Assembly (NCBI GenBank): GCA_963819655.1
Contig: CAWFXA010000002.1
Location: 1,728,137-1,792,136, forward strand
Source of the DNA: an uncultured Chloroflexia bacterium
GTDB lineage: Bacteria > Chloroflexota > Limnocylindria > Limnocylindrales > CSP1-4
Length of the DNA stretch: 64,000 nt
Direction of reading: 5' to 3'
This document shows, piece after piece, positions 22,131 to 56,217 of this stretch. The translations under genes and the position numbers were made by a program. The notes below the pieces were generated by a model that was not told where the DNA came from, made no database searches, and worked only from the letters and a program-made list of their open reading frames with translations. How positions within the stretch are numbered: position 1 is the stretch's first letter; the number at the start of each line of letters is the position of its first letter.

Positions 22131-22263
22131 CCGATTCTTTAGGTCGTCCTTACACCGTCCGAACGTCCACGTTATCGCCCATTTCCTAGCCTCCGGATCA
22201 CTGGCCGGACCGGTATCGGTCCGACCGGCATGCGACCGCACGCCATCCGGAGGCCCGCTACAC

Positions 22264-32299: not shown

Positions 32300-32538
32300 A
32301 TGCCCCAACAACTTGTCTATGTCCACGGTGCCGGGCCGCAGAAGCCCGCGTCGATCCTCAAGCACGATATCGACATGCGGGTCTTCGGCAAGGACATGTC
32401 GAGCGCGACGAGTTCGAGCCGCCCAAGAACATGCCCAAGGACGAACAGGTCAACAACCCGGCACCGGACAACCACGAGCTGATGGGCTACCTGTCGGTCG
32501 CGATCGTCCGCGACACGATCGTCGCAGCGGCAGAGTAG
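32300..32538 (+). pseudogene. Internally deleted paralog of the 17370 alpha/beta-hydrolase
   Basis: MPQQLVYVHGAGPQKPAS...DMS joined out of frame to DEFEPPKN...NHELMGYLSV...RDTIVAAAE*. Confidence 0.85.
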
Positions 32539-32551
32539 GGGACCACCACAC

Positions 32552-33628
32552 ATGGCCGGGCAGTTTCGACCACGAGCGGTGTTCCAGTTGCAGCGAGATC
32601 CGAAACATCCGACTGGCTCGCGATTGGGCGGCGTCAACTGCAACCCCACAGCCGGTGCCACGCTCGTCGCCTTCGTCACGTGTGGTGCCAAGCTGACGAC
32701 AGGTGCCGCCGTACGCGAGCTTACGAACGATACCGAGGGCGGGACAGTCCTAAGCACCGTAGTCGCGGCACTGCGCCGGGGTTTCGGGGTCGACATCGAC
32801 GTCGACACCGGGTCGTTCGAGCGGATCATCAAGGCCCTCGACTCACGTCGCGGCGTCACGCTCAGCGGGTCCAGCATCGCGACACGCGGGACGCGGTTCC
32901 AGGCGAGCGAGACGTTTGACGGCAACCACCAGTGGGCGCTGACGGACATCCGAACGGGGGATGGTGGGCGTCGTGAGATCCTCGTGTTCGATCCCTTGGC
33001 TGACGGCCGACGCCGTGGTATCGCCGTTTCGCCGATGTGGATTCCGGCGGGCATCGTCCGCGAGTTCGCGGGCAAGCTCGACCTGAGGTCCAAGGCAGAG
33101 AAGGCGGCGAAGCGGCCTCGCCGACTCCTCGGCGTAGGTCGGGCTACCTACGGCTTGACCGAGGTCGTCGCCTGCGCAGGAAAGGCGGTACCGGTGCCGC
33201 GCGTCCGGCTGCGGGCGGGTGCGTCCCTCGTGTATGGACAGGCCGGGCGCGACCGGGTAGTGGGCGTGGCGATCGCACGGATCCGCGAACGGCCGACGAC
33301 GACCTCGGACATCGTCGGTCGCAAGCGTGCCGGCGACACGTTCCGGGCGTTCCAGCGCATCAAGGGCCAGCGTGTCGCGGGCGCCCCGATCTGGCTCGGC
33401 GACCGCACAGGCGAGCGATGGATGCATGCGTCGCTGTTCCGTGCCCTATCCCAGGTCGCCGAACCTGGGGTCGGCCAGGTCGGGGAGGACCCCGAGGCCG
33501 TTGCTATCCCGGATGCCGCGGATGATCAGGGGACCGTCGACGAGTTGCTCGAGGGGGCCGAGGACGGCGTCGACGAGGAGGTCGTCGACGAGGTCGCGGG
33601 CGAGTCGACGGAGCCCCTGCCCGGCTAG
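32552..33628 (+). CDS. Putative C39-like papain-fold peptidase with SH3b-like domain and acidic tail
   Basis: Q...NC, GNH, VFDP order typical of C39; ARIRERPTTTSDIVG...W SH3-like pattern. Confidence 0.55.
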   Translation: MAGQFRPRAVFQLQRDPKHPTGSRLGGVNCNPTAGATLVAFVTCGAKLTTGAAVRELTNDTEGGTVLSTVVAALRRGFGVDIDVDTGSFERIIKALDSRRGVTLSGSSIATRGTRFQASETFDGNHQWALTDIRTGDGGRREILVFDPLADGRRRGIAVSPMWIPAGIVREFAGKLDLRSKAEKAAKRPRRLLGVGRATYGLTEVVACAGKAVPVPRVRLRAGASLVYGQAGRDRVVGVAIARIRERPTTTSDIVGRKRAGDTFRAFQRIKGQRVAGAPIWLGDRTGERWMHASLFRALSQVAEPGVGQVGEDPEAVAIPDAADDQGTVDELLEGAEDGVDEEVVDEVAGESTEPLPG

Positions 33629-33714
33629 GCCGGGTGAACGCCACAGGCTCCACGGTTGTCCGGCCGCGTACCATCGGTCGAGAACGGCCTCGGCTGAAAG
33701 ACGGGGGAGTTACC

Positions 33715-35502
33715 ATGGCAGACGTTCGAGGCAACCCCTGGGAGCACGATCCTGGCCCACTCTCAGGGAGCGGCTGGGCGGAGCTCTTCGCCGCTACCCC
33801 GAACTACCGCGGACTCGGTCGGGAGGTCATCGGGCGCGAAGCGTTCCGTTGGCACCATGGTCCGATGTTCTACCGCGGTCGCCTCGACGGGTCTGCCAAG
33901 GTCATGGTGGTCGGCCAGGAGGGCGCCCAGGACGAGTCGCTCGCGCACCGTTCCTTCACCGGCGGGACCGGCGCTCGCATGCAGCATCTGCTGCGGTTCC
34001 TCGGGCTCGATCGCTCGTACTTGTTCGTGAATTCGTTCGTCTATCCGATCTTCGGTCAGTACACCCTCGACCTTCGAACGCTGGCCCAGGATCCTCGATC
34101 GCCGATCGTGACCCATCGCCACCGGATCTATAACAAGGCGGTGGTCGACGGCGACGTTCGCCTCGTCATCGCGGTCGGTCGCGCGGCGAAGGAGTCCGTG
34201 GCCACGTGGATCGAGTCGCACGGAGGGACGGCCCAACCCGAGGCCCTGCATACGGCATTGCTGGGCACCCTGCCGAACCTGCTTCGAGTCGTCGGTGTCC
34301 TGCATCCGGGAAGCGTGTCGGGCTCGACCAAACCCATCAGGGATGACTTCGTGCGCGCCATCGGGCGTGTCCGCACATGGCTTCAGGCCGACCCGGGCTG
34401 GCTGCCCACCGATCCGGGCATGACGCGGAACCTCACGGCCTCATTCCCGTACTCCTCGGCCGCGATCCCGTTCCGAGACTTCCCCTTCGGGACCTGCCCG
34501 CGCCTGGGGCGGGGCGGGACCTCGAGCAACCGCAGCGACGAACAACGGGCGATCCGGTTGTTCTCGGCAGCTGGCAGATACAACGCTTCGGGCGCTCACC
34601 TGACCGATCCTTCGTCGGCTGCCGGGAACGACGAGGGGTACGACGACGACCCGGGGGACCTGCCATACGAGCCGCCGCGCGCCAAGCCGCTCGCGTTCGA
34701 CGCTGGCCCGCCGGCTGACCTGGCGCGCCTGTTGATGGGTGCTGAGCCGGGTTTCGAGTGGCCCGATTTCGCGTCGCTCGGCGTGACCGCACACCCCTCG
34801 TTCGGGGTAGGGCCGATCTATCGTGGCCGGTTTCGAAACCTGAGCCTCGTGATCCTCGCCGATCAGCGGTCAGCGGACGACACCTTCACCGGCCGAGCCC
34901 TCTCGGGCGATGCGGGCCAACGCTTCCAGGGAGTCCTACGCGCGGCCGGTCTGACCAAGCGCTACCTGGTCATCCGCACCCTGCCCATCGACACCGTGGA
35001 TCTCACCGCGGCCAAGCGCGCCGCGCTGGTCGATCACCCCAAGGTACGAACGCTGCATCGCGAACTCCTGAGCCGCGTCCGCTCCGCGAACGGCGGGGTC
35101 ACCGCGCTCCTCGCGACGGGCCCCGGCGCTCGACGGCTCGCCCCGAGTGTGGTTCCGGCCGGGATCGATGTGATCGAGCTCGCGGCGCACGGGGAGCCGG
35201 GGTTCCAGGCGTCCTGGCAGGCGGCGCTGACGCAGCTTGCCGCACGCGCGTACACCAAGGACCTTGCAAATCCCACATTCGATGCCCCGACCGGCCGCAG
35301 TCAGATCCCACGGATCGACCTGCCCTATGGCACCCCGCGATGGGTCGGGAGCTCGGGCGATCGAGGCGTGCGGCCGGTGGACACCGACATCGACAAGCCA
35401 TCGCCGGACTATCTGAAGCTGTTCCTGCCGGCATGGGTCGCGGCACTCGCGCCGGCGCCGTTGAGCCCGGCGGAGCAGACCGCGGCCGATCAGCTCAGCT
35501 GA
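33715..35502 (+). CDS. Protein with two tandem uracil-DNA-glycosylase-superfamily domains
   Basis: FYRGR...VVGQEGAQDE...FTGGTG...VN...HP, then degenerate IYRGR...LADQ...LSGDAG. Confidence 0.75.
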   Translation: MADVRGNPWEHDPGPLSGSGWAELFAATPNYRGLGREVIGREAFRWHHGPMFYRGRLDGSAKVMVVGQEGAQDESLAHRSFTGGTGARMQHLLRFLGLDRSYLFVNSFVYPIFGQYTLDLRTLAQDPRSPIVTHRHRIYNKAVVDGDVRLVIAVGRAAKESVATWIESHGGTAQPEALHTALLGTLPNLLRVVGVLHPGSVSGSTKPIRDDFVRAIGRVRTWLQADPGWLPTDPGMTRNLTASFPYSSAAIPFRDFPFGTCPRLGRGGTSSNRSDEQRAIRLFSAAGRYNASGAHLTDPSSAAGNDEGYDDDPGDLPYEPPRAKPLAFDAGPPADLARLLMGAEPGFEWPDFASLGVTAHPSFGVGPIYRGRFRNLSLVILADQRSADDTFTGRALSGDAGQRFQGVLRAAGLTKRYLVIRTLPIDTVDLTAAKRAALVDHPKVRTLHRELLSRVRSANGGVTALLATGPGARRLAPSVVPAGIDVIELAAHGEPGFQASWQAALTQLAARAYTKDLANPTFDAPTGRSQIPRIDLPYGTPRWVGSSGDRGVRPVDTDIDKPSPDYLKLFLPAWVAALAPAPLSPAEQTAADQLS

Positions 35503-35504
35503 CG

Positions 35505-38500
35505 ATGCCCGCTGCCCCGCTTCCCCGCTATGGATTGCGCGGGCGCGTGGTCACGATGAACGCCGGACGCGACGTGATCGCGGACGGCATCGTGTGGCTT
35601 GCCGACGGCTCGATCAGCGACGTGACACCGGCGAACCAGACGCCGGCCGCCCACGCTGGGTCGCCGGTCGTCGCCACGGCCGGCACGATCTACCCGGGCA
35701 TGATCGAGCTCCACAACCACCTCGCCTATAACACGCTGCCGCTGTTCAGGATCCCGCGGCTCTACACGAAGCGAGAGGAGTGGCAGGGTACCCGCGGGTA
35801 CCGGCGGTACGTCAGCGGTCCCGCGGGGGTCGTCGCGTCGGTGCCCGACCTGATCCGGGCGACGGTCCGCTACGTCGAGTGCAAGAGCCTGATCGCAGGC
35901 ACGACGACATCCCAGGGGCTGACCCTGCGCTCGACCCCGATCAAGCACCTCTACAAGGGCATCGTCCGTAATGCCGAGCAACCGGACGCGGCCGGCCTGG
36001 ACGCTGCGCGACCCAAGATCGGCGACGTGACCCCGGAGGGCCGGGAGGCGTTCCGCAAGTCGCTGGCCGGTAAGGGTGCCCGGATCGTCCATCTGGCCGA
36101 GGGGCTCTCGACCTCGAAGGCCCACGACCACTTCACCGACCTCCAGGCGCCCAACGGCACGTGGGCGATCGGGCCAAAGTTCGTAGGCATCCATTCGACG
36201 GCCCTCACCCCGCCCGACCTCGCCATCGTCGACCAGCTTGGCGGATCCATCGTCTGGTCGCCGTTCAGCAACCTCGCCCTGTATGGCGGGACGACCGACG
36301 CCAAGACCGCCATGGACCTCGGGATCAAGGTCGCCCTCGGCTCTGATTGGTCGCCGACCGCGAGCAAGAACCTGCTCCATGAGCTCAAGGTCGCGCGCAT
36401 CTGGAGTGACGACCAGCAGCTCGGCATCACCGACCGCCAGCTCATCGAGATGGTGACGGTGACGCCGGCGGAGATCCTCGGCTGGCAGAGTCGACTGGGC
36501 TCGCTCGAACCAGGCAGGCTCGCCGACGTCACTGTTGTTTCGGGCAAGACGGGTGAGCCGTATCGTCATCTGATCGACGCAACCGAGTCGGATATCCGTC
36601 TGGTCGTGATCGGTGGGATCGCCCGCTATGCGACACCTGCCTTGCTGGCGAAACTCAGCCCCGTTGACGAACACGCCGACGTCGCGGGCAAGCCACGGGC
36701 GTTCCACCTCGATCTGAACGATCCCGATCCGGTCCTCGGTCCGATCGGGCTCACCGACGCGACGGCGACCCTTGCCGATGCGCTCGCGCACATGCCGGAG
36801 CGCGCCGCCGCGATCGGCTCCGTCGAGCTCGGGATCGTGGCCGCCCAGGCCGTGGCCGGTGCGGACGCCGACGAGCGCTGGTTCCTGGAACTCGACCAGC
36901 CACCGATCGCTGGCGTCGAGGCCACGCTGTTCGACGGCCTCGCCCCGGCCTTGCTGGACGTCGTGATCGGCGCCGAGAGCTTCGCCTCGATCGCAGTTGC
37001 CCTCAAGCTCGATCCCCTCGCCACCGAAGGCGACGACGCGTTCTTCGACATGCTGGCCAACCTCGAGAACCTCCCGGCAGTCCTCCGGGACACGCTGCCG
37101 GGCCGCTATGGCGAGGTGCCGCGGGCTCCCACGGAGGGGGTCGGGCTCGAGGACGATGACCTGTCGATCGCGCCGCTCACGTTGCCGGAGTTGCTCGAGC
37201 GCGAGGGCGACCTGACACTCGCCGATCGACGACTGATCGTCCAGCAGGCGATCGTCCTGATCGATCAAGCCTACGTCCACCTGCCGATGAAACGGGCGAG
37301 GTATGCGGCAGACCCGCTGCAACGCCTCCGACTGATGGCGCACCGACTCGAAGCCCTGGCGCCCGACGAGCTGGGCCCCGAGAGCCAGTTCCATGAGGAA
37401 CTGATCACGATCTTCACGGGCCTGCGCGACCTGCACACCCACTACGTCCCACCCGAGCCCTATCGCTCGCACACGGTGTACCTGCCGTTCCTCGTCGAGG
37501 AGTGCACGCGGGCGGGCCGGCTGCAGTACCTCGTGTCCAAGGTCGCCAGGGGCTCCGATCTCGACCCCTCATTCGCTCAGGGGTCGGAGGTCACGCACTG
37601 GAACGGCACACCGATCCGACGGGCCATCGAGCGGAATGCCGAGAATCAGGGCGGCGGCAACCGGGCGGCTCGGATGGCACGCGGGCTCGACGCGCTGACG
37701 ATCCGGACACTCGGGCGCACGGCGCCACCGGACGAGGACTGGGTCGATGTGACCTACCGGACTCCAGACGGAGACGAGCGCATGGTTCGCACCCGCTGGA
37801 GCACCTACCAGCCGCTCGAGCCGTCGCCCTTCGGGGATCTTGAGCAAGCGTTCGCGAGCGCCGTCCCAGTCAGGTCGGGGAATCGCGGCCGGCTCGGCGC
37901 GCTCGGTGTCGACGACCAGACCGCGACGGTCAACCTGGTCCGGCGCGACCTCTTCGCCCGCGGGTGGCAGCAGACGCCGACCGCCGGGTCGGGCGAGTTG
38001 GTCACCGAGCTGCCCGGGATCATGCGCGCCAGGGTCCGCGAGACGAGCGCCGGGGATGTCCTGCACTTGCGGATCTTCACGTTCGTGGTCCCCGATCCCG
38101 GGACATTCGTCCAGGAATTCGTGCGCCTGGTCCAGGCCCGACCCACGGTCGGCTTGATCGTGGACGTCAGAGGCAACGGTGGGGGCGACATCCGCGCCGC
38201 GGAGCGCCTGTTGCAGGTCATGACGCCCCAGCCGATCAGGCCCGAACCGACGCAGTTCATCGTCAGCCCGTTGGTTCGTCGCCTGTGCGTGGCCAACGAT
38301 CGTGACCCGATCGACCTCACGTCCTGGGCCTCTTCTGTCTTCGAGGCCGTGGAGACCGGTGCCACGTTCTCGACCGGGTTCCCGATCACGTCGGCGGAAG
38401 ATGTCAACGACCTCGGCCAGGCCTATTACGGGCCGGTCGTCCTGATCACGGATGCCCGCTGCTATAGCGCTACGGACATCTTCGCCGCCGGTTTCCAGGA

Positions 38501-39053
38501 CCATGACATCGGGCCGATCGTCGGAGTCGCCGACCGTACCGGTGCCGGCGGTGCGAACGTGTGGACGCACCGCCTGCTTCGGGAGCTCCTACCCACTCAG
38601 GACAATCCGCTCAGGGAGCTTCCGAGGCAGGCCTCTTTCCGCGTGGCGGTACGCCGAACCACCCGTGTCGGCGCGCACTCCAGCGAGCTCCTCGAGGACC
38701 TCGGCGTCATAGCTGACAAGGTGCACGCCATCACGGACAACGATCTGCTCGAGGACAATCGTGACCTGATCGAAGCCGCCGTCGCCGAGATGCAGGGACG
38801 CGCGACGAGACGATTGCTGGCCGACGTGTCGGTGGCCGGCGACAGCGTCACCATCGACGTGGCCACGACGAGCTTGGACCGGGTCGATGCCTATCTCGAC
38901 GGTCGACCAGTCGCTTCCAAAGACGTGCAAGACGATCAATGTACCTTCGTCCTTCCCAGATCCCTGACCGGCGATCGCGGGGAGTTGCGGCTGGAAGGGT
39001 TTCAGGGCGGGACGCTCGGCGCCGCGAGGCGACTGGTCATCCCGAGCGGATGA
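35505..39053 (+). CDS. Amidohydrolase (deaminase-like) fused to S41 tail-specific-protease domain
   Basis: PGMIELHNH, VHLAEG, GIHS, ALGSDW, GSLEPGRLAD; then DLHT, DVRGNGGG, YSATDIFA, TGAGGA in one ORF. Confidence 0.88.
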   Translation: MPAAPLPRYGLRGRVVTMNAGRDVIADGIVWLADGSISDVTPANQTPAAHAGSPVVATAGTIYPGMIELHNHLAYNTLPLFRIPRLYTKREEWQGTRGYRRYVSGPAGVVASVPDLIRATVRYVECKSLIAGTTTSQGLTLRSTPIKHLYKGIVRNAEQPDAAGLDAARPKIGDVTPEGREAFRKSLAGKGARIVHLAEGLSTSKAHDHFTDLQAPNGTWAIGPKFVGIHSTALTPPDLAIVDQLGGSIVWSPFSNLALYGGTTDAKTAMDLGIKVALGSDWSPTASKNLLHELKVARIWSDDQQLGITDRQLIEMVTVTPAEILGWQSRLGSLEPGRLADVTVVSGKTGEPYRHLIDATESDIRLVVIGGIARYATPALLAKLSPVDEHADVAGKPRAFHLDLNDPDPVLGPIGLTDATATLADALAHMPERAAAIGSVELGIVAAQAVAGADADERWFLELDQPPIAGVEATLFDGLAPALLDVVIGAESFASIAVALKLDPLATEGDDAFFDMLANLENLPAVLRDTLPGRYGEVPRAPTEGVGLEDDDLSIAPLTLPELLEREGDLTLADRRLIVQQAIVLIDQAYVHLPMKRARYAADPLQRLRLMAHRLEALAPDELGPESQFHEELITIFTGLRDLHTHYVPPEPYRSHTVYLPFLVEECTRAGRLQYLVSKVARGSDLDPSFAQGSEVTHWNGTPIRRAIERNAENQGGGNRAARMARGLDALTIRTLGRTAPPDEDWVDVTYRTPDGDERMVRTRWSTYQPLEPSPFGDLEQAFASAVPVRSGNRGRLGALGVDDQTATVNLVRRDLFARGWQQTPTAGSGELVTELPGIMRARVRETSAGDVLHLRIFTFVVPDPGTFVQEFVRLVQARPTVGLIVDVRGNGGGDIRAAERLLQVMTPQPIRPEPTQFIVSPLVRRLCVANDRDPIDLTSWASSVFEAVETGATFSTGFPITSAEDVNDLGQAYYGPVVLITDARCYSATDIFAAGFQDHDIGPIVGVADRTGAGGANVWTHRLLRELLPTQDNPLRELPRQASFRVAVRRTTRVGAHSSELLEDLGVIADKVHAITDNDLLEDNRDLIEAAVAEMQGRATRRLLADVSVAGDSVTIDVATTSLDRVDAYLDGRPVASKDVQDDQCTFVLPRSLTGDRGELRLEGFQGGTLGAARRLVIPSG

Positions 39054-39088
39054 GGGCCGTCGACCACATCGCCGAGCCGGTGGGGGCG

Positions 39089-39427
39089 TCAGCCCTCGGG
39101 TTCGGCCTCCTCGTCGCCCCACGACCTACCCTCTCCGATCCGCGTCCGGCGCGATCGCTGGAATGCCGCGGACTGGCGCAGGTTCCATGCCTTTACACCC
39201 ATCCGAGCGACCTCGTCAAGACCGCCCAGGTCCTCCGGAACGGGGCCCTCGTAGACCTTTGCGATCTCGGACGTTTCGCCGGATCCGGCCGCCCCGCCTT
39301 CCGGGAACTCGACGACCAGTGCCCGATCCCCGTACGCCTGGACCGCGCGACCGCCGGCGACTTCGAGCCACGCCCGCAGGTCGTCGGGAGAAGCGGCGGG
39401 GGCCAGGACCACGAAGTACTCGACCAT
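39089..39427 (-). CDS. Stand-alone homolog of the N-terminal domain of the adjacent metalloprotease
   Basis: YGDRALVVE...GVKAWNLR...GRSW vs YGSRVLIGE...GLAAWNLR...GQRW. Confidence 0.8.
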   Translation of the reverse strand: MVEYFVVLAPAASPDDLRAWLEVAGGRAVQAYGDRALVVEFPEGGAAGSGETSEIAKVYEGPVPEDLGGLDEVARMGVKAWNLRQSAAFQRSRRTRIGEGRSWGDEEAEPEG

Positions 39428-39472
39428 CGATCACACGTTCTTCCGGACCAGGGGACGCTCGGAGGATAGAAC

Positions 39473-40918: not shown

Positions 40919-41388
40919 TGGATGCAGCGGAGTTCGAGCGCGAGGTCCTGGCGAAGTCGGCGGGCGGCGACGGTCCGGAGCTGGCCGGACCGGTCCGTGT
41001 CATCGACTCGGTCAAGGGCGACGCTGGGAGCTCGACGTACAACGTTTCGGCGTCGTACCTGGTCCCCATCGACGACGACGATCCGGATCTGGCCGGGGTC
41101 TCCATCCAGGTCCCGGTGACGGCCGCCGTCGAGGTCGACGGCGAAGGAGCGATCGTCGGGATCGATGTTCCGGTCGACCCGGAGGCCCAGCGCGAGGCGA
41201 GGGCGTTCACCCGCAACCTGATCGCTCGTGGGGCTGTCAGCGGGTTGGCGGCAAGCGGCCCCGTACGACGCGGTCCCGGGCCAGCCACCCGCCCGACACA
41301 CGAACTGACCCTCGACGAATCCGGTCGGCGGGTGATCCGCCGGACCGGTTTCACGGCCGCGGGCGCGCCGACTGCGCCCGAAGGATGA
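40918..41388 (+). CDS. Stand-alone homolog of the C-terminal domain of the downstream M4/M36-like protease
   Basis: ARAFTRNLIARG...PTHEL...RTGF vs ARAFARSLIANG...PSHEI...RVGF. Confidence 0.8.
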   Translation: MDAAEFEREVLAKSAGGDGPELAGPVRVIDSVKGDAGSSTYNVSASYLVPIDDDDPDLAGVSIQVPVTAAVEVDGEGAIVGIDVPVDPEAQREARAFTRNLIARGAVSGLAASGPVRRGPGPATRPTHELTLDESGRRVIRRTGFTAAGAPTAPEG

Positions 41389-41411
41389 GAAGCGAGCCAA
41401 AGGAGCGTCCC

Positions 41412-42896: not shown

Positions 42897-42907
42897 CGCT
42901 GAGGGCG

Positions 42908-47653: not shown

Positions 47654-47754
47654 CGGTCGCCTCTTCCCGCGCGCCCGATGTCAAGGCTACCGCGGGTCGC
47701 AAGCAAATCCGTTACAGCGGCGGTGCTATCGTGGCCATTCAGCGAGGTGGAGGC

Positions 47755-49746
47755 ATGCCTGCGGACGGATCCGGCTCCACGTCCTTCGTCGTCATCCGGA
47801 CCGATTGGTCGGTCCTGACGGCCCTCCGGGCGCTCGACGCGACCGACGCGACCCACGTGATCATCGCGCACCACGACGATCGTGGCGACGAATACCACCT
47901 GTTCGTCGCCGACGACTTCTTCGCCGAGCTCCAGAGTCACCCGACCGAGGCGAACCTCACCTCGGTGCTACCACTGGCCGAGTGGCCGCCAACGCCGACG
48001 ATCGCGCCGGGCGACGCGATCGGTGATCGGACGATGGCGGTCGTCCTCGATCGCGGCCGCCCGGTCGGTTTCATCGATCGCAACGTCCCGAGCGGGCCAG
48101 GCCCGACCGACGGGAACGTCCAACCGGGTGATGCCGGCGGCGCCGGTGCGTGGACTGGCGAGGAGGTCGTCGAGCCGGTGCGGCGCGGCGGTGGGCACAG
48201 GGCGAAGCCGCCCGCTCCTGCGGTGGTCGACGATGGAGGCCCCGGCGCTGAGGATGGCGGGGCAGAGCGATCGCTCGAGGCGGAGTTCCCCGACACGGTC
48301 GTGGTCGACACGGTGGAGTGGCTGCTTGTCTCGATCGTGAACGCCGCTCCGACGGCCACGGGTCTCGCCATCGAGGTCGCGGCGGGCGAATCGATCGACG
48401 TCCTGATCCAGCCGCGGCGCGGGTTCAGCGTGGAGGGAGATGCCCGCGGCACGCTCAAGGTGCCGGCCTCCGGCGAGAGCCTGCCGCTCCAGTTCAAGGT
48501 CAAGGCCCTCGACGAGGGAAAGGGACTGATCCGCGTCCTGGCCTTCCACCTCGGCGAGCCGCTGGGCGTCATCACCCTCGAGCCGATGGTGAAGACCGCG
48601 TCCGGGAGCCGGGTACGCGGACGGACGACCTCGGCACCTGCAGCGAGGAAGGGGCAGGCGCTGACGGCGCCGAGCCCGCAGGTCCCGGACATGTCGTTGT
48701 TCATCGAGGAGCGCGAGGCCGGCGGAGCCCTAGAGTTCATCATCCGCCTGACCGCCACGGACCCGGCACTCGACCTGAACCTCCGTCCGTTCGGGCCGTT
48801 CCGTCTCGAGGTCCAACCCGCCGAGTTCTTCGGGACATTCTTCCAAGAGATCGACGAGCTGCCCCTGGCCACGAAGGAACAGCGCGTGGTCGCCGAGCGA
48901 CGGTTGGCGGCCAAGGGTGCGTACCTGACCGAGTCCCTGATGCCCCCGGACCTGCGTGAGGCGCTATGGCTGGTTCGCGATCGGATCGCCTCCGTCATCA
49001 TCCAGTCCGAGGAGCCGTGGATCCCGTGGGAGCTCTGCCGGCTCATGGGCCGCGACGGCGACCGGGTGATCGAGGGTCCGTTCCTGTGCGAGGCCTTCGC
49101 GGTTACCCGCTGGTTGCCCGGTGAGGGGTTCAAGCGCCCCCTCCGGCTCACCAACCTGGCCCTGATCGTCCCGGCCGATTCCGGCCTGCCGCTCGCGCCC
49201 GCGGAACGCGAATTCGTCCTGTCGCTGGCCGGGGACGGTCGTGCCGTGACGGCGATCGATCCGAAGTTCGCCGAGGTACAGGACGCGTTTGCGGCCGGCG
49301 TCTACGATGGCTGGCACTTCACCGGGCACGGCGCAGCGCGCGATTCGAACCCGGATCGTTCGTCGATCATCCTGAGTGGCGAGGAGTCGTTTACGCCGGA
49401 GGACCTCAGCGGCCAAGCCGCGAACCTGGGCATCCCACATCCGCTGATCTTCATCAACGCCTGCCAGGTCGGCCGCGGCGGTATGGGCTTGACCGGCATC
49501 GGTGGCTGGGCGCGACGCTTCGTACAGACCGGGGCCGGCGCGTTCATCGGGGCGTACTGGTCGGTCTATGACGTGTCGGCCTTCGCCTTCGCTAAGGAGG
49601 TCTATACGCGGCTCCTGGACGGGATGCCGATCGGTGACGCGGTCCGCGAGGCACGCGCCAAGGTCCGTGAGGATGGTGACCCGACGTGGCTCGCCTACAC
49701 CGTGTATGCCGATCCCCTGGCCACGGTCGAGGCTCGACCGGCCTAG
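47755..49746 (+). CDS. Soluble CHAT protease with N-terminal accessory domains
   Basis: IPWEL, WHFTGHG, FINACQ, AYWSV, WLAYTVYADP. Confidence 0.92.
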   Translation: MPADGSGSTSFVVIRTDWSVLTALRALDATDATHVIIAHHDDRGDEYHLFVADDFFAELQSHPTEANLTSVLPLAEWPPTPTIAPGDAIGDRTMAVVLDRGRPVGFIDRNVPSGPGPTDGNVQPGDAGGAGAWTGEEVVEPVRRGGGHRAKPPAPAVVDDGGPGAEDGGAERSLEAEFPDTVVVDTVEWLLVSIVNAAPTATGLAIEVAAGESIDVLIQPRRGFSVEGDARGTLKVPASGESLPLQFKVKALDEGKGLIRVLAFHLGEPLGVITLEPMVKTASGSRVRGRTTSAPAARKGQALTAPSPQVPDMSLFIEEREAGGALEFIIRLTATDPALDLNLRPFGPFRLEVQPAEFFGTFFQEIDELPLATKEQRVVAERRLAAKGAYLTESLMPPDLREALWLVRDRIASVIIQSEEPWIPWELCRLMGRDGDRVIEGPFLCEAFAVTRWLPGEGFKRPLRLTNLALIVPADSGLPLAPAEREFVLSLAGDGRAVTAIDPKFAEVQDAFAAGVYDGWHFTGHGAARDSNPDRSSIILSGEESFTPEDLSGQAANLGIPHPLIFINACQVGRGGMGLTGIGGWARRFVQTGAGAFIGAYWSVYDVSAFAFAKEVYTRLLDGMPIGDAVREARAKVREDGDPTWLAYTVYADPLATVEARPA

Positions 49747-49753
49747 GTCTTGG

Positions 49754-50608
49754 CTACCGACGAGCCGCCTCCCGTCGTGACAACCCAGGTGCCCCTTCGG
49801 CCGAGGTGGCGGGCCGCCGGCGCTCCTGGAGGACGTGGAACGCGGCCATCGCGACCGTGAGGAAGATCAGCCCGCCGATGTATGAGCTGACGGTCCGCCC
49901 GGTCAGTTCTCCGTAGAAGAGGGCACACGTCGCGAGGAGGGCGACGCCGTTGACGATGAACAGCCGAGCGGCCGTGCGGATCTCGTCCCAATCGCGAGCG
50001 AAGGCCATCGTCCCGCACCAGACCGACCAGCCGAGGAACCACGCCGCGACGATGCGCGCATCCAGGGGGTTGAGCCCCCAGGCCCAACGGAGCGATGCGA
50101 ACTCGGGGTTGATCACGAGGAGCAGGCCATGCATGAGCAGCAGCCCCGTAACGAGGACGAGGAACCGCTTGAACCACAGGAGGATGGGGCCGCCGCTGAG
50201 CGGCGCCTCGGCTCGCAGGATCCCCCGCGGGATCAGGTAGATCATCACCACCGGCTCGAAGATGTAGAGGATCACCCAGATGTGGGCCGTCGGCGGGGTG
50301 AACTGTGACCAGGTGAATTCGTCGATGTGCCAGAACGTCGCGAGCAACAGTGTGCCGGTGAAGGCGAGGTTGCCCCACACGATCCAGCGGAGCCGGATCC
50401 AGTCCGCTTGGCGGGCGACGTAGAGGAAGAACAGCGTCCGGAAGATGTAGCCGGCGCCGATGAAGGCTTGGGCGTAGCGCGGCTGGACGTCCCACGCGAA
50501 GTATTCGGGCACGAACTGCGGGAATACCAGCATCCACACCGCGAACCAGGCGGCCGCGAGTGCGCCCAGAACGCCCCAGAGAACCTGTGAGCGAGGTGGC
50601 CAGTTCAT
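49754..50608 (-). CDS. Multi-pass membrane protein with internal duplication
   Basis: About 8 TMs; FAWDVQPRYAQAFIGA vs WAWGLNPLDARIVAA halves. Confidence 0.8.
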   Translation of the reverse strand: MNWPPRSQVLWGVLGALAAAWFAVWMLVFPQFVPEYFAWDVQPRYAQAFIGAGYIFRTLFFLYVARQADWIRLRWIVWGNLAFTGTLLLATFWHIDEFTWSQFTPPTAHIWVILYIFEPVVMIYLIPRGILRAEAPLSGGPILLWFKRFLVLVTGLLLMHGLLLVINPEFASLRWAWGLNPLDARIVAAWFLGWSVWCGTMAFARDWDEIRTAARLFIVNGVALLATCALFYGELTGRTVSSYIGGLIFLTVAMAAFHVLQERRRPATSAEGAPGLSRREAARR

Positions 50609-50615
50609 CGATGCT

Positions 50616-51440
50616 TCACCGCTCGACGTCGATCGTGAAGCTGGCCGTGTCGAACAGCCATTCCTTCGGGCGGCCGAACAGCCCGGCCTCGCGAACCCAG
50701 CACGTGATGCCGACCCGTAGTTGTTTCGTGCCTTTGGGCACGAGCAGTGTCTGGAGCAAGGCCTGGTGCCCGGCGATCTGCTGGTCCTGGGCGTAGAGGC
50801 TCCACTCGGCGCCGCCAAACCCGTCGCCGGGGCCGGAGATGACCTTGGGCACGGAGACGGTGAAGCTGATCGACAGCTTCGCGTTCTCATTGATGCTCGC
50901 GCCGACCTTGGCCGCGGTCAGGGTCACGCCGGGCACAGTACTGATCGCGGCCTGCAATTCCTTCGGCACCTCGAGCGATCCGTCGAGGCGGATGTCGACG
51001 CTCGCCTCGGCCCCGACTTTGGCGATGTCGAGCAGCTCGGTCGACGGTTGGACGTCAACGGTGTCGGCCTGCACGTCGAACAGCTCGACCTTGTAGCCCA
51101 TCCCCCACACCTTCGCCGGCTTGCGGCCGGGCGCCGGCTGGGCGGTCACGCCATGCGACAGCAGCACCGGGAACTTCCGCCCGAACCCGGCCACGATCGT
51201 CGGGTCGGGTGTCTTCTGGGCGAGCTTCCACAGGCGGCGCAGGTCGATCGCCCGCGGCGCCGGCATCGCCAGGCTGAACGGCGCGTTCGAGGGAAGTCCA
51301 CGCGTGGCCTCGTCACCGCCCCGCCGGACCGGACCCGCCGCCTTCACGGCGTCGGCGGCCATCTCCTGGAGAACGTCGTCCTCGACGTCCTGCGGCTTGC
51401 CTCTCGCCTCGAGGGTCTGCGATCCCGGCTCCGCCATCAT
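50616..51440 (-). CDS. Hypothetical beta-rich protein
   Basis: 274-aa ORF with GGAGG SD; alternating polar/hydrophobic strands. Confidence 0.8.
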   Translation of the reverse strand: MMAEPGSQTLEARGKPQDVEDDVLQEMAADAVKAAGPVRRGGDEATRGLPSNAPFSLAMPAPRAIDLRRLWKLAQKTPDPTIVAGFGRKFPVLLSHGVTAQPAPGRKPAKVWGMGYKVELFDVQADTVDVQPSTELLDIAKVGAEASVDIRLDGSLEVPKELQAAISTVPGVTLTAAKVGASINENAKLSISFTVSVPKVISGPGDGFGGAEWSLYAQDQQIAGHQALLQTLLVPKGTKQLRVGITCWVREAGLFGRPKEWLFDTASFTIDVER

Positions 51441-51832
51441 GTCTCCTCCCGCTCGGCGCCGCGCCGAGTGTAAGCCCGCAAGTCGAGCGTTCCCGAGCCG
51501 CTGTGTCGAGGTTATGCCCGTCTGAAATGCCCTAGACCGCGCGGCCGTAGCGTCGGCAAGCGGCCACTCGGGCGTCGTGAAGGGCTAGTCCGCGTCGCGC
51601 CTTAGCAGGCCTTCGATTATTCGAGCGCGTTCGGCAGCGGGGACGGTGAGACGTTCGCTGACGTGGGGTGCCTCGACCGACAACGCCACTTCGACCGCCC
51701 AGTCGTCTACGAGGTCTACCCGGATGGCTAGTTCGACCAGGCTGTCGGCTGCGGGTACACGCAGGCGATCCTGTACGTCGAGAGAGCGCCTGAGTTGCTG
51801 CGATAATGGGTCGGCGCTCCACAAGGGGAAGG

Positions 51833-53180
51833 ATGACCTCAGGCATCCCGCGGGCCTCGCTCGGCGAGAACGTCCGCTTCACGCTGACGTACCTCCTGCC
51901 GAGCATGCTCCGGGGGGCCCTGATCCCGCAGCCGTTCTGGACCGATGCGGGGATCCGGCTCGACAACGGGCGCGGCGTGGCGACGGTGGAGCGCCTGACC
52001 AGGCGGTACTCCGGCCGGCCGGTGATGCTTCGGGGCGTCAACGGGCAGACGCTCCTCGTCCTGGCGGCCGATGACATCCGCCGGGTCCTCGAGTCACCCG
52101 TGTCCGTCTACGGGATGAACGCCGGCGAGAAGCGGCGGCTGTTCGCCGAGTTCGCACCCGATGTGCTCAACGGCTCGCCGCCGGAGCTCGCATGCCGAGC
52201 GCCGGCCGTTTAACGAGGCGGTGCTGAACTATGGACACGAGCCCCATCGCTTCGCGGAGCGATTCCTGACGATCGTTCACGAGGAAATCGCGGCGATGCT
52301 GGCCGACGACGGCGTCCTCGATTACGAGCGGTCGCTCGCGGCCTTTCGACGGATCGCGCGGCGCTGCGCCTTCGGCGAAGCTGCCGAGGATGACACGGAG
52401 TTCAGCGACGAGCACGGCCGACTGCGAGCGGACGGCGACTGGCTGGGGCTCAAGTTCTGGAATCGACGCAGGAATGCACGACTGCGTGCATCCATGGACG
52501 CACGGATCGAGCGGTACGTAGCGGCCGCCGAGCCCGGCACGCTCGTAAGTCTCTTCGCGTCTGCGCCCAAGGAGGCGGAAACCAAGCCGAACGGCCAGGT
52601 GCCGTTCTGGCTGATGGCGCTCGACGCGGTTCGCATCGCGGTCTTCAACACGCTGGCGCTGCTCATGACCAATCCCGCCGCGCGCGAGCGCGCCCTCGCC
52701 GAGGTCCGCACGGCGGACACGGCCCACGGGCCGGGCACGGTCGCCGCCCTCGCCGAGCTTGCCTTCGTGCGCGCCTGCCTGCTCGACAGCGTTCGGCTGT
52801 GGCCCGCGGCAGCGGCGCTCGTCCGAGTCACGGCGGTCGAGACGGAGTGGTACGGCGAGACGCTGCCGATCGGCGCGAAGGTCCTCATCCCCGTCGTCGC
52901 ACACCATCGCGCGAGTCGGCTGCCGCATGCGAACCGGTTCGCACCGGACCTCTGGCTCGACGGCTCGGCGGACGCCGACTGGCAGATGAACGTGTTCTCG
53001 CGCGGCGGCGCACAGTGTGCCGGCCGGAATCTCGCCCTCCTGCTTGGCACCGCCAGTCTGGCGGAGCTGCTCCGACAGCGGGAGTTCGAGCTCCTGAGGC
53101 CGAAGCTCGCCCCGGACCGGCCGCTCCCGTACGGAATCAACCCGTTGAACGTCCGATTTGCCGTTCGCGGAACCCGTTGA
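51833..53180 (+). CDS. Atypical cytochrome P450 (frameshift near 52190)
   Basis: FSRGGAQCAG heme-Cys motif, DSVRLWP (ExxR variant), FAPDLW. Confidence 0.88.
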
Positions 53181-53328
53181 CATCGCCGGCCGTGTTGGGT
53201 TTGCCCACGGGGGCGTCGTCAGCCAGGGCGACCAGTCAGGAGGCCCGGCCTGTCAGCCCCGTCGCCGGCGGATTGCGGTCGATGTTGGCTTTCAGCAATC
53301 ATCTGGCCGCCAGACACGCAATCGTCGC

Positions 53329-53860
53329 CTAAGGGAAAGACAAGCACCAAAGACCGGGGCCTGACCAGTAGATCGCTACCCGTGGTGTGCTCCCCGTTAG
53401 CGCGGCGTATCTGGCAAGACCGTCAAGGTTCGCCTTTGGCATCTTGAAGGGACGATCGATCCCTTGGACTGGATGGTTCTTGACTTCGATCGACAGGTTC
53501 CTGCCATCCTCCAGGACGACGCGATAGTCGCCCGGTCGAACTCGGTCAGCGGGCCTCGCCCACGTCGTGCCTTGGTCCTCTTCCGTCAATAGAGCGACCG
53601 CGCCCATGCACGTACGACCTGTCCGAACATCACCTGGGTGTGCTAGCCGTAAACCCGCGCCGGATTCGCGAGCGATCTGCGGACACCTTCGCGGAAGCGG
53701 GCGATGACAGAGTCGAGGCGGGCTTCGTCTCCGAGAGCCCATGTCGCGGAGTCGTCGAGTCTCGCAAGAGATCGAGGCCGCCGAGTTCTGCAGCGTGACG
53801 AGGAAGCGCGACTAGAGGAACACGCTTTGGGGCTGCCTTCTTGGCGCGGTCGCGGCTCAC
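53329..53860 (-). pseudogene. PD-(D/E)XK nuclease-like remnant
   Basis: PGDYRVVLEDGRNLSIEVKN; frameshifted and apparently truncated. Confidence 0.5.
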
Positions 53861-54022
53861 GGGTCGAAGCGTACCGACCGGCCGGCGGCTCCGCCGGTTG
53901 TGTGCCGACGAGCCAACACTATGACCAGATCGTGTCGCCGACGTAGTCCTCAGCCAGCGTGGTCCTCGAGGGCTGCAGGCGTGAACACGCTCGGCCGGCT
54001 CGCGGGAAGCCAGTGCCTCGGT

Positions 54023-55551
54023 CTAGTCCCCAAGCGGGTTCAGCAGGTTTGCCCTTCCTCGGAAAGCGAACAGCAGGAGGTCGGTCATGGCGAAGTTCGG
54101 CTTGCTGGGGCCCAGGGTGGGTTTGAAGGCCGTGTCGCGGACGATCGAGAACTTGCTGCCCTCCATGGCGCGGTGGAACGTCTCCGCCACGATGCGCGCG
54201 CCGACGCCACCGAGTTTGCCTCCGTTGAACTCGGCCTCGCGCAGGATGTAGAACCACAGGGGTGTGTTCGTGAGCAATGCAGTTCGTTGCGCCAGGCTGA
54301 GGCCGGCAAAGGTCGCGCCGTTCGAGCCATCCCGGATCTGCGCTGTGCGTGAGCCTGGTCAGCGTCACGCCCTTGCTCCTCAGGAAGGTCAACATCTGCT
54401 GGCCGGTGGCGAGATTGACCATGTTCGCCCTGGTCAGGTTGCGGAAGGCGAGGTTCTTCCGCGGGTCCGGGTCCGGCACCCGCAACTGCCGCAGCGGGTT
54501 GACCAGCTTCGTGTCGACGCGCATCGCCCTGTTGAACTTGCCTGTCGGGACGACCAGATCGGCTCGCTCGAACTTGAACAAGCGGCGGAAATCGGCGATC
54601 CAGATGTTCGGCAGCCGCGTCCCGCCACCCAGGTCGCCGTTCAGCCCCGAGAAGTCGAACAGCTGATCAAGCGTTGCGTCGGGGAAGTTCACGTTCCAGC
54701 TGTACTCGGCCCGGATCATGCTGTGGCCTAGCCGGTAGGCCGCAACGGAGAACTCGATTGGCATCGTCGGGAGGGCCATCGGACTCGCCCCTACCTCGAA
54801 TGCCTTGCGGCCGTTGCTTGAAGACATCGTCGACCACGGCCTTCTGGCAGATCCGCGGGAGGAAGTCGTGCCGGATCACCCACTGGTAGTGCTTGGTCAC
54901 GATCTTCCGCGCCTCATTGAAGCGCTGCGCCGCTGGAACCGAGGCCGGAAGCGTGTCGACGACGCGGTTGTGGAACCTGATCATCGCCAGGTGGGTCTGA
55001 GCGACGGCCAGATTCTCGTCGTTTCGCGGGATCGGGGATGAGCGCCTCCCGCTTCTGCGCCAACGTTCCCGTTCCCTTCCGCGGCAGGTCGAATCCCTGC
55101 GAGGGCGGCCCGTCCCGGCGTTGCCCATCTTGAGGTGCAGGCCGTCGCTGTAGAACTTGGCCGAGCCCGGATCCTGCGGCCCGGCGCCGTACAGCGAGTC
55201 CAGATCGAGGCTCGGCGAGCGGTTCTGCTCAAGCTCCGCCGGGGAGATGTCGCCGCCCTCCATCAGGGCGCTCTTGTCGAAGGTGAGGTCGTGGTCGATG
55301 AACTGGCCGACATAGGTGAAGCCGGCGGGTATCGGCCCGGCCGTCAGGTTGCCGACGGTCATCGCCTCCGCGATCTTCCTGCGGTTCGTCTCACCCAGCT
55401 GCTTCCCGGCGCCCTTCGGCCCCAGGCGCGAAAAGCGAAACGGCGGTACGGTCGCGGCATCGGCCGCGATGGCGAGCGCCCTGCCGCCCAAGGCCTCCCC
55501 GAGCAACCCCTCGCCGAGCACGAAATAGCTTTCCGAACCATGACGGATCAC
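54023..55551 (-). CDS. Animal-type heme peroxidase / fatty-acid dioxygenase family (several frameshifts)
   Basis: TYVGQFIDHDLT, LDLDSLYG, PRNDEN, RFHN, AYRLGHSM, TPLWFYILREAE, LGGVGARIVAETF. Confidence 0.9.
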
Positions 55552-55620
55552 GGTGCCCCCCTTTCCCGAGGCTAGTCGCGGGGCGTATCGTTCGACGCCC
55601 TCGCGAACGAACTCAACAGC

Positions 55621-55908
55621 TCACCCACCGACGACCCACGAGGAGCGAATTGAACCATTGCAGTTGCCCCGGATCGTGTCAATCAGGGCGCAGGCTATCA
55701 ACCCATCGTCGCTCGAGCGTGCCTTGAAGCGCCGGACGCCGCGCCGCGTCCGTCCGACCTTGAGGATGAAGTTCTCGAGCTCCGTGTCAGTGAAGGGCAC
55801 CTTGAACCGCCCTTCCTCCTCGCCGCCCAGCCCGCTTGCCTCGACGCGATAGGTACGCCGCGACGGGCCGCGCTCGATCCGCAGCCGGAACTGTGCGTAG
55901 GCCGTCAT
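55621..55908 (-). pseudogene. Truncated N-terminus of another CHAT-type gene
   Basis: YAQFRLRIE...YRVEAS...GRFKVPF resembles YLDFEIDV...YTVNVRS...MRFPF of the 47653 CHAT. Confidence 0.6.
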
Positions 55909-56217
55909 CCCGCGACCTAGCGTGATGGCGCCATGGCTCACCGACCTCCAGGCGACCGGGTCCGCAGACCCTCGAGCGCAATCATAGGAGTTGGCGCAAC
56001 TCGTCCTGCGCCGGCGAGCACTAGGCGATGGTCAGGGCGGTTCGGCGGTCGACCGGGGCTTGCGGACCGACCGATGGAGTGCCCGCCAAGGTCGCCGCCT
56101 ACACGCTGTTCACCGAGCGCCCGACCGAGCGGGCCGCGCGGTCGTGCACGTCGAAGGCCGTATTCAGCTGGTGCCGAGAGGCCCGCTCGCGGACATCGAA
56201 GCTGTGGCGGCGCGGCG

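Follow-up and report, generated by a model that had tools for sequence, protein, structure and literature searches.

A CHAT-centred mosaic of peptidase modules in a Limnocylindrales genome: a possible guild for regulated intracellular proteolysis

The window analysed here is a stretch of 64,000 nucleotides from an uncultured soil or sediment Chloroflexia bacterium of the Limnocylindrales (assembly GCA_963819655.1, contig CAWFXA010000002.1, positions 1,728,137 to 1,792,136), and its subject is an island of genes for CHAT proteases, peptidases of several other classes and their small companions. We see about an even chance that this island is a real, lineage-restricted accessory mosaic of swappable modules that forms a CHAT-centred guild for regulated intracellular proteolysis. 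The genome comprises 3.49 Mb in 3 contigs and is 91% complete. Because the G+C content of the window is 68%, genes were picked by third-position GC (the GC3 heuristic), and they were named from Pfam, NCBIfam, PADLOC, PDB and Atlas searches; in other loci, gene calls were made with the GC3 heuristic and single-linkage clusters. The nearest homologues were found in metagenome-assembled genomes (MAGs) labelled "Chloroflexota bacterium", "Candidatus Limnocylindrales bacterium" and "uncultured Chloroflexia bacterium". Most of the genomes compared are MAGs, absence means that a gene was not found in those searched, and relatives are not independent of each other. Genomes and loci are cited by our own G and L numbers, and lengths are given in amino acids (aa). 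The genes are as follows:

17370-18323, + strand: abH, a 317-aa alpha/beta-hydrolase (PGAP1/lipase-like), with its start set by 195 homologues of ~310-320 aa
18384-19646, + strand: S8 subtilase without a signal peptide (Peptidase_S8 E=3.1e-45; PADLOC "subtilase" model E=5e-32)
19705-20115, + strand: 136-aa protein, companion of the S8 gene, which adjoins the S8 homologue in G005 and G264
32300-32532, + strand: remnant of a second abH gene, with only residues 1-37 and 272-316 left (own-genome search)
32552-33628, + strand: C39-like papain-fold Cys peptidase with an SH3b-like domain, 358 aa (alignment, Pfam, AlphaFold2 (AF2), Foldseek)
33634-35502, + strand: tandem protein of the uracil-DNA glycosylase (UDG) superfamily, 622 aa (Pfam UDG E=4.1e-9; PDB 5gn2 E=3e-23)
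35505-39053, + strand: fusion of a deaminase-type amidohydrolase and a CPAF/Prc-like S41 peptidase, 1182 aa (Pfam, NCBIfam and PDB matches)
39473-40918, + strand: snapalysin-like zincin, 481 aa, called by its motif, HETGHIFGCPDEY
40918-41388, + strand: 156-aa protein, homologue of the C-terminal domain of the M4-like protein (BLASTP E=6e-6; hhalign probability 99.1%, E=5e-19)
41385-42896, + strand: M4/M36-like Glu-zincin with a 156-type C-terminal domain, called by its motifs (homologues begin at MATVSY, that is, at 41412)
42908-45295, - strand: CHAT1, with a C-terminal CHAT domain (Pfam CHAT E=2.9e-22)
45292-47653, - strand: CHAT2, with an N-terminal CHAT domain, read through a +1 frameshift (Pfam CHAT E=3.4e-20 for 45292-47091)
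47731-49746, + strand: CHAT3, a soluble protein with the domains TCAD7 (ternary complex associated domain 7), DUF7363 and CHAT (Pfam CHAT E=6.4e-19)
49754-50605, - strand: multi-pass membrane protein by hydropathy, with no family match
50616-51440, - strand: unk274, a 274-aa CHAT-associated protein, candidate effector or substrate, with a CHAT gene near its homologues

From 32552 to 42896, the + strand genes are tightly packed, save for a 420-bp gap before the zincin gene at 39473. CHAT2 and CHAT1 lie on the - strand with the end of CHAT2 overlapping the start of CHAT1, and CHAT1 is convergent with the M4-like gene. CHAT3 is divergent from CHAT2, and the genes of the membrane protein and unk274 are convergent with CHAT3; the membrane protein gene, which is kept with the island in G181 and G264, stands directly downstream of unk274 on the same strand after a 10-base gap. 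These genes may be arranged in putative modules: A, the abH, S8 and 136-aa genes plus the decayed second abH; B, the C39-like + SH3b Cys peptidase; C, the tandem UDG-like gene and the amidohydrolase-S41 fusion, which would be a mobile cassette; D, the snapalysin-like zincin, the 156-aa protein and the M4-like zincin, with the 156-type domain in common; E, the operon of the membrane proteases CHAT2 and CHAT1 with the divergent soluble CHAT3; and F, unk274 with the membrane protein. The right border of the island is placed at 51440, because the P450 and haem-peroxidase fragments beyond it are not beside the island elsewhere. The initial annotation had drawn the interval to 55908, and its right-hand 4.5 kb, with these fragments, was not found next to the island in any relative checked. 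The P450 and haem-peroxidase fragments (51806-55941) were also considered as effectors and rejected, being absent from beside the island in the flanks of G181, G264, G024 and G228. There is no composition break at the island and no tRNA gene in the window, and a prophage origin was considered and rejected, as nothing spoke in its support.

A whole-genome scan showed that all 3 CHAT matches of the 3.49-Mb genome fall in the window. The 3 genes stand within 7 kb, near five genes for peptidases without a signal peptide by hydropathy, and for this spacing chance placement comes to ~(7/3488)^2 by our arithmetic, and this clustering is far from random placement. The initial annotation had described three CHAT proteases with intact HG and AC motifs, and Pfam matches together with His-Gly and Ala-Cys motifs were read in all three translations (HFAVHG/NACQVG, HFIGHG/NACDTG and HFTGHG/NACQVG). 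The truncated fourth CHAT that it had listed does not exist; this copy is CHAT2, whose N-terminal 157 codons (47181-47653) lie out of frame. The CHAT2 frame is broken by one extra T near 47170-47174. This T is absent from two same-genus genomes and from 2/2 short-read contigs spanning the site; apart from this T, one of the two contigs departs from the window at just 2 of 134 letters. Because the relatives and the short-read contigs lack the extra T, the frameshift probably stems from a fault of assembly or from a very recent change. Contigs of two public runs (X1 and X3) are without one base at 47664, in the 78-bp divergent promoter region of CHAT2 and CHAT3, which is a possible assembly indel. 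Other genes of the window are also split across frames, namely the N and C halves of an FGGY kinase (1612-3214) and the P450 gene (51806-53180), and a gene resembling animal haem peroxidases lies in three pieces (53919-55941). The island copy in G181 has many frame changes. Since several window genes are split and the G181 copy is full of frame changes, indel-prone assemblies are suggested rather than pseudogenes.

The receptor topology that had been proposed for two of the CHAT proteins was seen by hydropathy in CHAT1 and CHAT2. In CHAT1, an N-terminal hydrophobic segment is followed by a small ectodomain, transmembrane (TM) segments (143-196), a Gly-rich linker and the C-terminal CHAT domain. 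Its residues ~245-285 (44430-44560) form a glycine-rich repeat of GATVGAG-type units between the TM segments and the cytoplasmic part, and this stretch is the least conserved part of CHAT1 among relatives. CHAT2 starts with the CHAT domain, followed by a Pro-rich linker, one TM segment (residues 253-278 of the C-terminal ORF) and an extracytoplasmic PD40/TolB-like propeller (hydropathy, Pfam and NCBIfam). A single-TM protein with a PD40/TolB-like propeller, 27-36% identical to the CHAT2-type propellers of relatives, is encoded at 28535-30133 on the - strand between the S8 module and the island; its long Arg-rich 5' extension is probably untranslated. In CHAT3, TCAD7 scored 24.2 bits (cut-off 24), DUF7363 38.7 bits (cut-off 28.3) and CHAT 68.9 bits. 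CHAT1 and CHAT3 are paralogous over ~400 aa (E=1e-20).

Turning to the other peptidases, the S8 module that had been placed at 17.4-20.1 kb was confirmed by the subtilase at 18384-19646 (E=3.1e-45), in which ~150 aa precede the catalytic domain. The S41 peptidase was found above the Pfam cut-off (E=6.2e-14, 52.4 bits against 24), yet as the C-terminal half of the 1182-aa amidohydrolase fusion; this half matches CPAF (NCBIfam E=5.7e-13; PDB 3dja E=1.2e-5) and Prc, and it is a predicted peptidase. The C39-like assignment was upheld by the catalytic triad, a papain-fold model and family matches. The family has 229 representatives, and in an alignment of 45 members Cys30 and Asp147 are near-invariant and His126 is invariant, with Peptidase_C39_2 matched by 3/45 and SH3_3 by 6/45 of them. 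The AF2 model of the C39-like protein has a predicted local distance difference test score (pLDDT) of 84, and Foldseek related it to staphopain, the pseudomurein endoisopeptidase PeiR, the C39 domains of ComA and PCAT1, CHAP+SH3b endolysins and a CdiA-CT toxin; phmmer of the protein against the PDB gave no match. For the metzincin and M4/M36-like calls, the motifs are present but the Pfam scores stay below the gathering cut-offs, so the zincin assignments rest on motifs. The snapalysin-like zincin has the motif HETGHIFGCPD, with Reprolysin_5 at 19 bits against 27 and the M7, Reprolysin and snapalysin matches all below their cut-offs. The M4-like protein has HExxH and HEAFGD, both kept without change in 12/12 aligned homologues; M36 scored 20.4 bits against a cut-off of 23.3, and there was no NCBIfam match. 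Relatives of the M4-like catalytic domain only (query ~65-342; 34-38% identity), without the 156-type domain, occur on 11 contigs of a viral collection (IMG/VR, L222-L232).

Export was judged by crude Kyte-Doolittle hydropathy of the N-terminus, not by SignalP or DeepTMHMM, and the N-terminus of CHAT1 served as a clear positive control. No N-terminal hydrophobic segment was found by this measure in the S8, amidohydrolase-S41, C39-like and abH proteins or in either zincin, in line with the claim that the non-CHAT proteases have no evident signal peptide. The same holds for the families, in which such a segment was present in 0/120 S41, 0/120 M4-like, 0/120 abH and 1/144 C39-like homologues. M4, S8, S41 and snapalysin families are usually extracellular, which counts for another reading of the locus, namely an antibacterial or hydrolytic arsenal that is exported non-classically, by lysis or an unrecognised route, with the 156-type domain as a targeting tag or an immunity-like partner. 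Polymorphic toxin systems reportedly use peptidase domains, and the small genes of the island follow the peptidases as immunity genes do. The C39-like protein has the layout of an endolysin (papain fold + SH3b), with endolysins, an endoisopeptidase and CdiA-CT among its structural neighbours. Moreover, the C39-like domain stands at the very C-terminal end of three proteins 843-1438 aa long (P0376, P0473 and P0487), whose layout may recall polymorphic toxins; because they have no Pfam domain, they cannot be called so, and this counts against the arsenal. Pfam scans of the window revealed no gene of a secretion system, neither a hydrophobic tail nor a known sorting motif is present in the 156-type domain, and by hydropathy it is whole families, not single genes, that lack signal peptides. 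We therefore regard an exported arsenal as very unlikely and prefer proteolysis inside the cell.

The 156-type domain joins several of these peptidases. It forms the C-terminus of each of the 12 M4-like homologues that were aligned; in G388 it is fused to the snapalysin-like zincin (L130:14585-16510), and in L141 it is encoded by a gene that follows an S8 gene. The alignment contains no hydrophobic tail or sorting motif, and there is no PDB profile match. The 136-aa protein has no family match and is not detectably related to the N-terminus of the S8 protein or to the 156-type domain (hhalign probability 1.7%). A ceramidase-like membrane protein (PF05875, E=8e-11) is encoded divergently upstream of the M4-like gene in 5 loci (L137:2-1084, L143:8607-9428, L132, L136 and L139). 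In this clade, the contigs with enough flank also carry CHAT1, and the ceramidase-like gene has no counterpart in the window; the membrane protein at 49754-50605 was considered as such and ruled out, as it is a different protein.

A CHAT gene was near the unk274 homologue in 10/10 genomes examined. In G235, G063, G132, G154 (as fragments) and G189 (~0.9 kb), it immediately precedes unk274 on the same strand; in the window, G181, G264, G024 and G228, the two genes are convergent, with one membrane gene between them. Homologues of unk274 occur in 7/176 genomes of the family, with further ones elsewhere; a sample of 400 further genomes from across the phylum gave none, nor did G251, G061, G594, G457, G650, G388, G005 and G587. 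There was no relative in viral contigs and no Pfam, PADLOC or PDB-profile match. Its Atlas scores to the beta-pore-former families of leukocidin, aerolysin and ETX-MTX2 are 0.82-0.87, below the lead level of 0.9. The Pfam Gasdermin model (PF04598) had 0 matches in the genome at E<=0.1, and unk274 is not a recognisable gasdermin. By analogy with the gasdermins beside CHAT proteases, we consider unk274 the best candidate for a terminal effector.

Links between the modules recur outside the island. The abH protein has the nucleophile-elbow motif AHSLG, its nearest Atlas clusters are alpha/beta hydrolases, and it gave a weak Pfam match to Abhydrolase_6 (E=0.016) and only chance-level matches against the PDB. 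It was found at E<=1e-40 in 13 other genomes, of which 12 contexts were examined, and a same-strand peptidase gene follows abH in 11 of the 12. This gene encodes a distant M4-like zincin in 8 (G024, G228, G330, G077, G110, G323, G073 and G379), an S8 peptidase in G264, an S41 peptidase in G005 and a C39-like peptidase in G181; in the twelfth context (G325), abH is preceded by two divergent ORFs of the zincin cluster. None of the weaker abH relatives (10 loci) has these peptidase neighbours. In G235, G063 and G132, abH and CHAT are joined in fusions of 973-994 aa, with a weak, sub-cut-off PGAP1-like N-terminus and a clear C-terminal CHAT domain, and in all three a homologue of unk274 (50-53%) directly follows the fusion gene, the two genes overlapping in G063 (L221). 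Directly downstream of this pair, L221 (G063:C153) also encodes a papain-family C1 peptidase (6934-8031, - strand; E=1e-12), which by its sequence and position appears to be a further peptidase class in the same guild.

The M4-like gene adjoins CHAT1 convergently in 4/4 metagenome contigs with M4-like identity of >=61% and enough flank (L137, L138, L139 and L143). CHAT3 is also present on two of these contigs, and L143 encodes four CHAT proteins, of which one has a propeller. The M4-like gene is also beside CHAT1 and CHAT3 in G388, and in G587, which belongs to another family, the M4-like and CHAT1 genes are adjacent but co-oriented. CHAT3 adjoins a CHAT2-like gene in families f3 and f4. Because such pairwise links recur in other genomes, rearranged and fused, the island genes do not appear to be a random neighbourhood. 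The island as a coherent group, which had been assumed at the outset, thus stands in part: the pairwise links recur elsewhere, but the modules are separable and there is no fixed system.

The UDG-amidohydrolase-S41 genes form a case of their own. The first UDG domain scored 37 bits against the Pfam UDG cut-off of 24.3 and resembles the UDG Blr0248 (PDB 5gn2, E=3e-23). Motif A is reported as GQDPA or GQDPY (PMC5449639), and here it reads GQEGA; the second UDG domain is degenerate, and both halves match one UDG-like gene in G005. The amidohydrolase half is of the TRZ/ATZ/guanine-deaminase type, and in G005 the amidohydrolase and S41 parts are split into separate genes, with the UDG-like and amidohydrolase genes standing against the pair of S8 and 136-aa genes. 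In a first sample of 24 same-genus genomes, only one had a true relative of the amidohydrolase-S41 protein, encoded there by separate genes. The S41 family has 4217 matches among the candidates scored, at ~45-50% identity, and spans Actinomycetota, Chloroflexota, Cyanobacteria, Acidobacteriota and archaeal MAGs. Most S41 copies among the 80 loci are solitary genes of ~640 aa in genus-specific contexts. In about one fifth of these loci (17 by clustering and 20 by tblastn; several phyla), a UDG-like gene lies directly 5' of an amidohydrolase-S41 fusion, with the UDG-like part tandem or single (L015-L019, L021, L022, L025, L032, L033, L035, L055, L067 and L069). The hosts, MAGs and isolates, are labelled Chloroflexia, Pseudonocardiaceae, Solirubrobacterales, Acidimicrobiia, Anaerolineae, Dehalococcoidia and Bathyarchaeota. 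After the UDG-like and amidohydrolase genes, L155 and L156 have an M4-like zincin in place of S41, and partial versions occur in L168 and L190. Judged from these sequences, the UDG-amidohydrolase-S41 pair appears to be an independently mobile two-gene cassette and a finding in its own right.

The distribution of the whole island is narrow. The full gene order was found only in close relatives (70-94% identity), that is, in L014, L020 and L023 among the 80 loci and in G181, G228 and G264, and some of these loci and genomes are probably the same records. The island is present in a minority of same-genus genomes, and its flanks are scattered or absent in other members of the genus. In G181, an abH gene broken only by frame changes stands at the place of the abH remnant of the window. 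In G388, the fused zincin-156 gene, the M4-like gene, CHAT1 and CHAT3 are kept, with CHAT2, the C39-like gene and the cassette absent within 20 kb. The S8 module lies 13 kb to the left of the island in the window and ~6 kb beyond its other end in G264, among further CHAT-like genes. A block of trypsin, MoxR and VWA genes stands between the S8 module and the island in the window and ~300 kb from the island in G024. In the window, this block (21820-26627) is an operon that encodes a trypsin-like protease with a membrane anchor, an AAA_3 ATPase of the MoxR type and a VWA protein of the BatA type; G388 (L133, G388:C6, 9356-15287) has a trypsin-MoxR-VWA operon followed by a distant M4-like zincin.

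Several observations weigh against a guild with a shared function. PADLOC recognised no system and matched only CHAT and subtilase domains, in agreement with the earlier statement that no named system is recognised, and Pfam scans of the window ORFs showed no NTPase, nucleotide-signalling or CRISPR component. Synteny of the full island says little about function, because it is mostly from close relatives (70-94% identity). The spread of the parts is patchy: the M4-like gene is in 6/151 genomes of the family and 9/401 of the class, abH in 27/401, and CHAT3 orthologues in 14/401, from three families of the class. In G024, the C39-like gene runs straight into the zincin gene, with the UDG-like and amidohydrolase-S41 genes absent and the rest kept, and no other gene of the island accompanies the cassette in L015-L017 or in other phyla. 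M4-like homologues at 53-58% (L140, L141, L142 and L144) or <=46% identity have no CHAT neighbour in the available flanks, and no M4-like match was found in G457 and G650, which have CHAT3 orthologues and are ~90% complete and fragmented. CHAT1 and the M4-like gene are convergent, not co-transcribed. The AF2 model of unk274 reached a pLDDT of 32 from a 2-row alignment, and no fold was assigned. Finally, all calls of localisation are calls of hydropathy.

If these observations are taken to the full, the locus would be a hypervariable region in which independent accessory genes stand side by side, for peptide and protein turnover, DNA repair by a UDG-type enzyme, and division or development by HetF-like CHATs. 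The rearranged or absent flanks in same-genus genomes and the island's presence in a minority of the genus fit this, as does the occurrence of module C and of the broad M4-like family (33-42% identity) in many unrelated contexts. CHAT2 matched the HetF cell-division model at E=5.7e-15, which is far below its cut-off, and the UDG domain resembles a true UDG (5gn2; PMC5449639). Unrelated neighbours are hard to reconcile, however, with fusions that join the modules (abH with CHAT, and a zincin with the 156-type domain), with links that persist after rearrangement (G587, L218, and CHAT upstream of unk274 in four genera), and with abH beside four classes of peptidase. We hold this alternative to be unlikely.

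At the other extreme, the initial annotation had seen one integrated zymogen cascade, in which receptor CHATs activate the S41, zincin, S8 and C39-like peptidases in series and relay an envelope signal to effectors. The network of associations across genomes, the receptor-like topology of CHAT1 and CHAT2, and possible pro-domains (the ~150 aa that precede the catalytic domain of S8, and the 156-type domain) are in keeping with it, and a CHAT-driven cleavage cascade has been reported as a precedent (10.1101/2023.06.23.546230). The components, however, are separable, as the cassette is missing from G024, and CHAT2, the C39-like gene and the cassette are missing within 20 kb in G388. The S8 module changes sides between the window and G264, the intervening trypsin-MoxR-VWA block is far off in G024, and the S41 family is mostly solitary in unrelated contexts. 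With the cassette standing alone in many phyla and the P450 and peroxidase genes being bystanders, the claim of a single multi-class cascade was not sustained, and we consider it quite unlikely.

Between these two, we return to the mosaic of swappable modules around CHAT proteases. In this guild, the membrane CHATs would respond to an envelope cue through their outer part, a propeller or a small domain, with the protease facing the cytoplasm. Their activity would then act on CHAT3, the zincins and unk274 inside the cell, where the zincins are perhaps held latent by the 156-type domain, and the outcome would be regulated intracellular proteolysis. A sensor-to-effector cascade of this kind is an inference. 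A conflict, abortive-infection or cell-death response is the most likely output of the guild, and development is less likely. A bolder version, which we think unlikely, is that unk274 is an executioner other than a gasdermin. CHAT cleavage would free a lethal or pore-forming unk274, the zincins restrained by the 156-type domain, S8 and S41 would be latent demolition proteases, and the propeller CHATs would sense the envelope; together this would amount to a caspase-like, receptor-triggered pathway of regulated cell death in Chloroflexota, assembled from interchangeable cassettes of abH and peptidase genes.

Bacterial immunity and cell death are increasingly seen to be switched by caspase-like proteases, of which few substrates are known. 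The locus offers pairings that are apparently undescribed and can be tested: a CHAT protease, alone or fused to abH, with a conserved partner of 270 aa; abH ahead of four classes of signal-less peptidases; a small domain that is common to zincin and S8 genes, fused or separate; and the widespread cassette of a UDG-like protein, a deaminase-type amidohydrolase and S41. If it is true that CHAT cleaves unk274 or the zincins, these would be a new effector class in bacterial regulated proteolysis. If it is not so, the island would be a useful case of variable regions that mimic systems.

A limited open-access literature search found no publication on these gene combinations, and the comparison is therefore made with single aspects of known systems. 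The C39-like protein shares the Cys-His-Asp order, the papain fold and a C-terminal SH3b-like domain with C39 peptidases, staphopain and CHAP+SH3b endolysins. Unlike C39 peptidases, it has no ABC-transporter fusion, no double-glycine substrate nearby and no signal peptide, and C39_2 is matched by 3/45 of its family; the sole ABC fragment (30703-31776) is on the opposite strand and unrelated to the C39-like operon. The S41 half resembles chlamydial CPAF and Prc/CtpA in sequence, whereas here it is fused to a nucleobase-deaminase-type amidohydrolase, comes after a tandem UDG-like gene and is without a signal peptide.

Studies of type III CRISPR systems have described CHAT proteases in protease relays. 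SAVED-CHAT and PCaspase reportedly form a cleavage cascade from CHAT to caspase (10.1101/2023.06.23.546230). CHAT-family proteases of this kind, among them the Craspase TPR-CHAT (PMC9729208), reportedly cleave other proteins, including a caspase-like protease, as a relay. In contrast, Pfam scans of the window showed no SAVED, TPR, cas genes or cyclase, and the PADLOC match to SAVED_CHAT is confined to the CHAT portion (positions 126-307 of the 498 in the model). In bacterial gasdermin operons, 43/50 gasdermins adjoin proteases, 23 of those proteases being CHAT, and CHAT proteases cleave the neighbouring effectors (10.1101/2021.06.07.447441). The island resembles these operons in having a CHAT gene beside a protein of ~270 aa without TM segments, the genes overlapping in L221, and it differs in that unk274 has no recognisable gasdermin match.

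The closest description is that of the caspase- or CHAT-containing conflict systems of bacteria by Kaur, Burroughs, Iyer and Aravind (2020; PMC7159879). The core of their MoxR-vWA-VMAP ternary systems is not linked here, and the MoxR-VWA genes of the window (23.6-26.6 kb) are of the AAA_3/BatA type, with AAA_3 at E=1.9e-60 for MoxR against E=3.8e-16 for bpMoxR. Their System 4 combines EACC1 with a membrane-associated caspase that has variable C-terminal domains. No EACC1 gene was seen 5' of CHAT2-CHAT1, where the neighbour is the divergent CHAT3, although this inspection included no scan of small ORFs for EACC1. The partners in the island are S8, S41, zincin and C39-like peptidases and unk274, which are not known from those systems. 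On the other side, CHAT2 is like the System 4 protease in its N-terminal caspase-like domain, TM segment and variable extracytoplasmic domain. The island shares with these systems the patchy, accessory spread, and CHAT3 has TCAD7 at the cut-off, the sole pointer to the ternary systems. Caspase-superfamily peptidases are paired with alpha/beta-hydrolases in the VMAP ternary systems of the same paper (PMC7159879), and the same pairing is found here, with the protease and the hydrolase fused in other genera.

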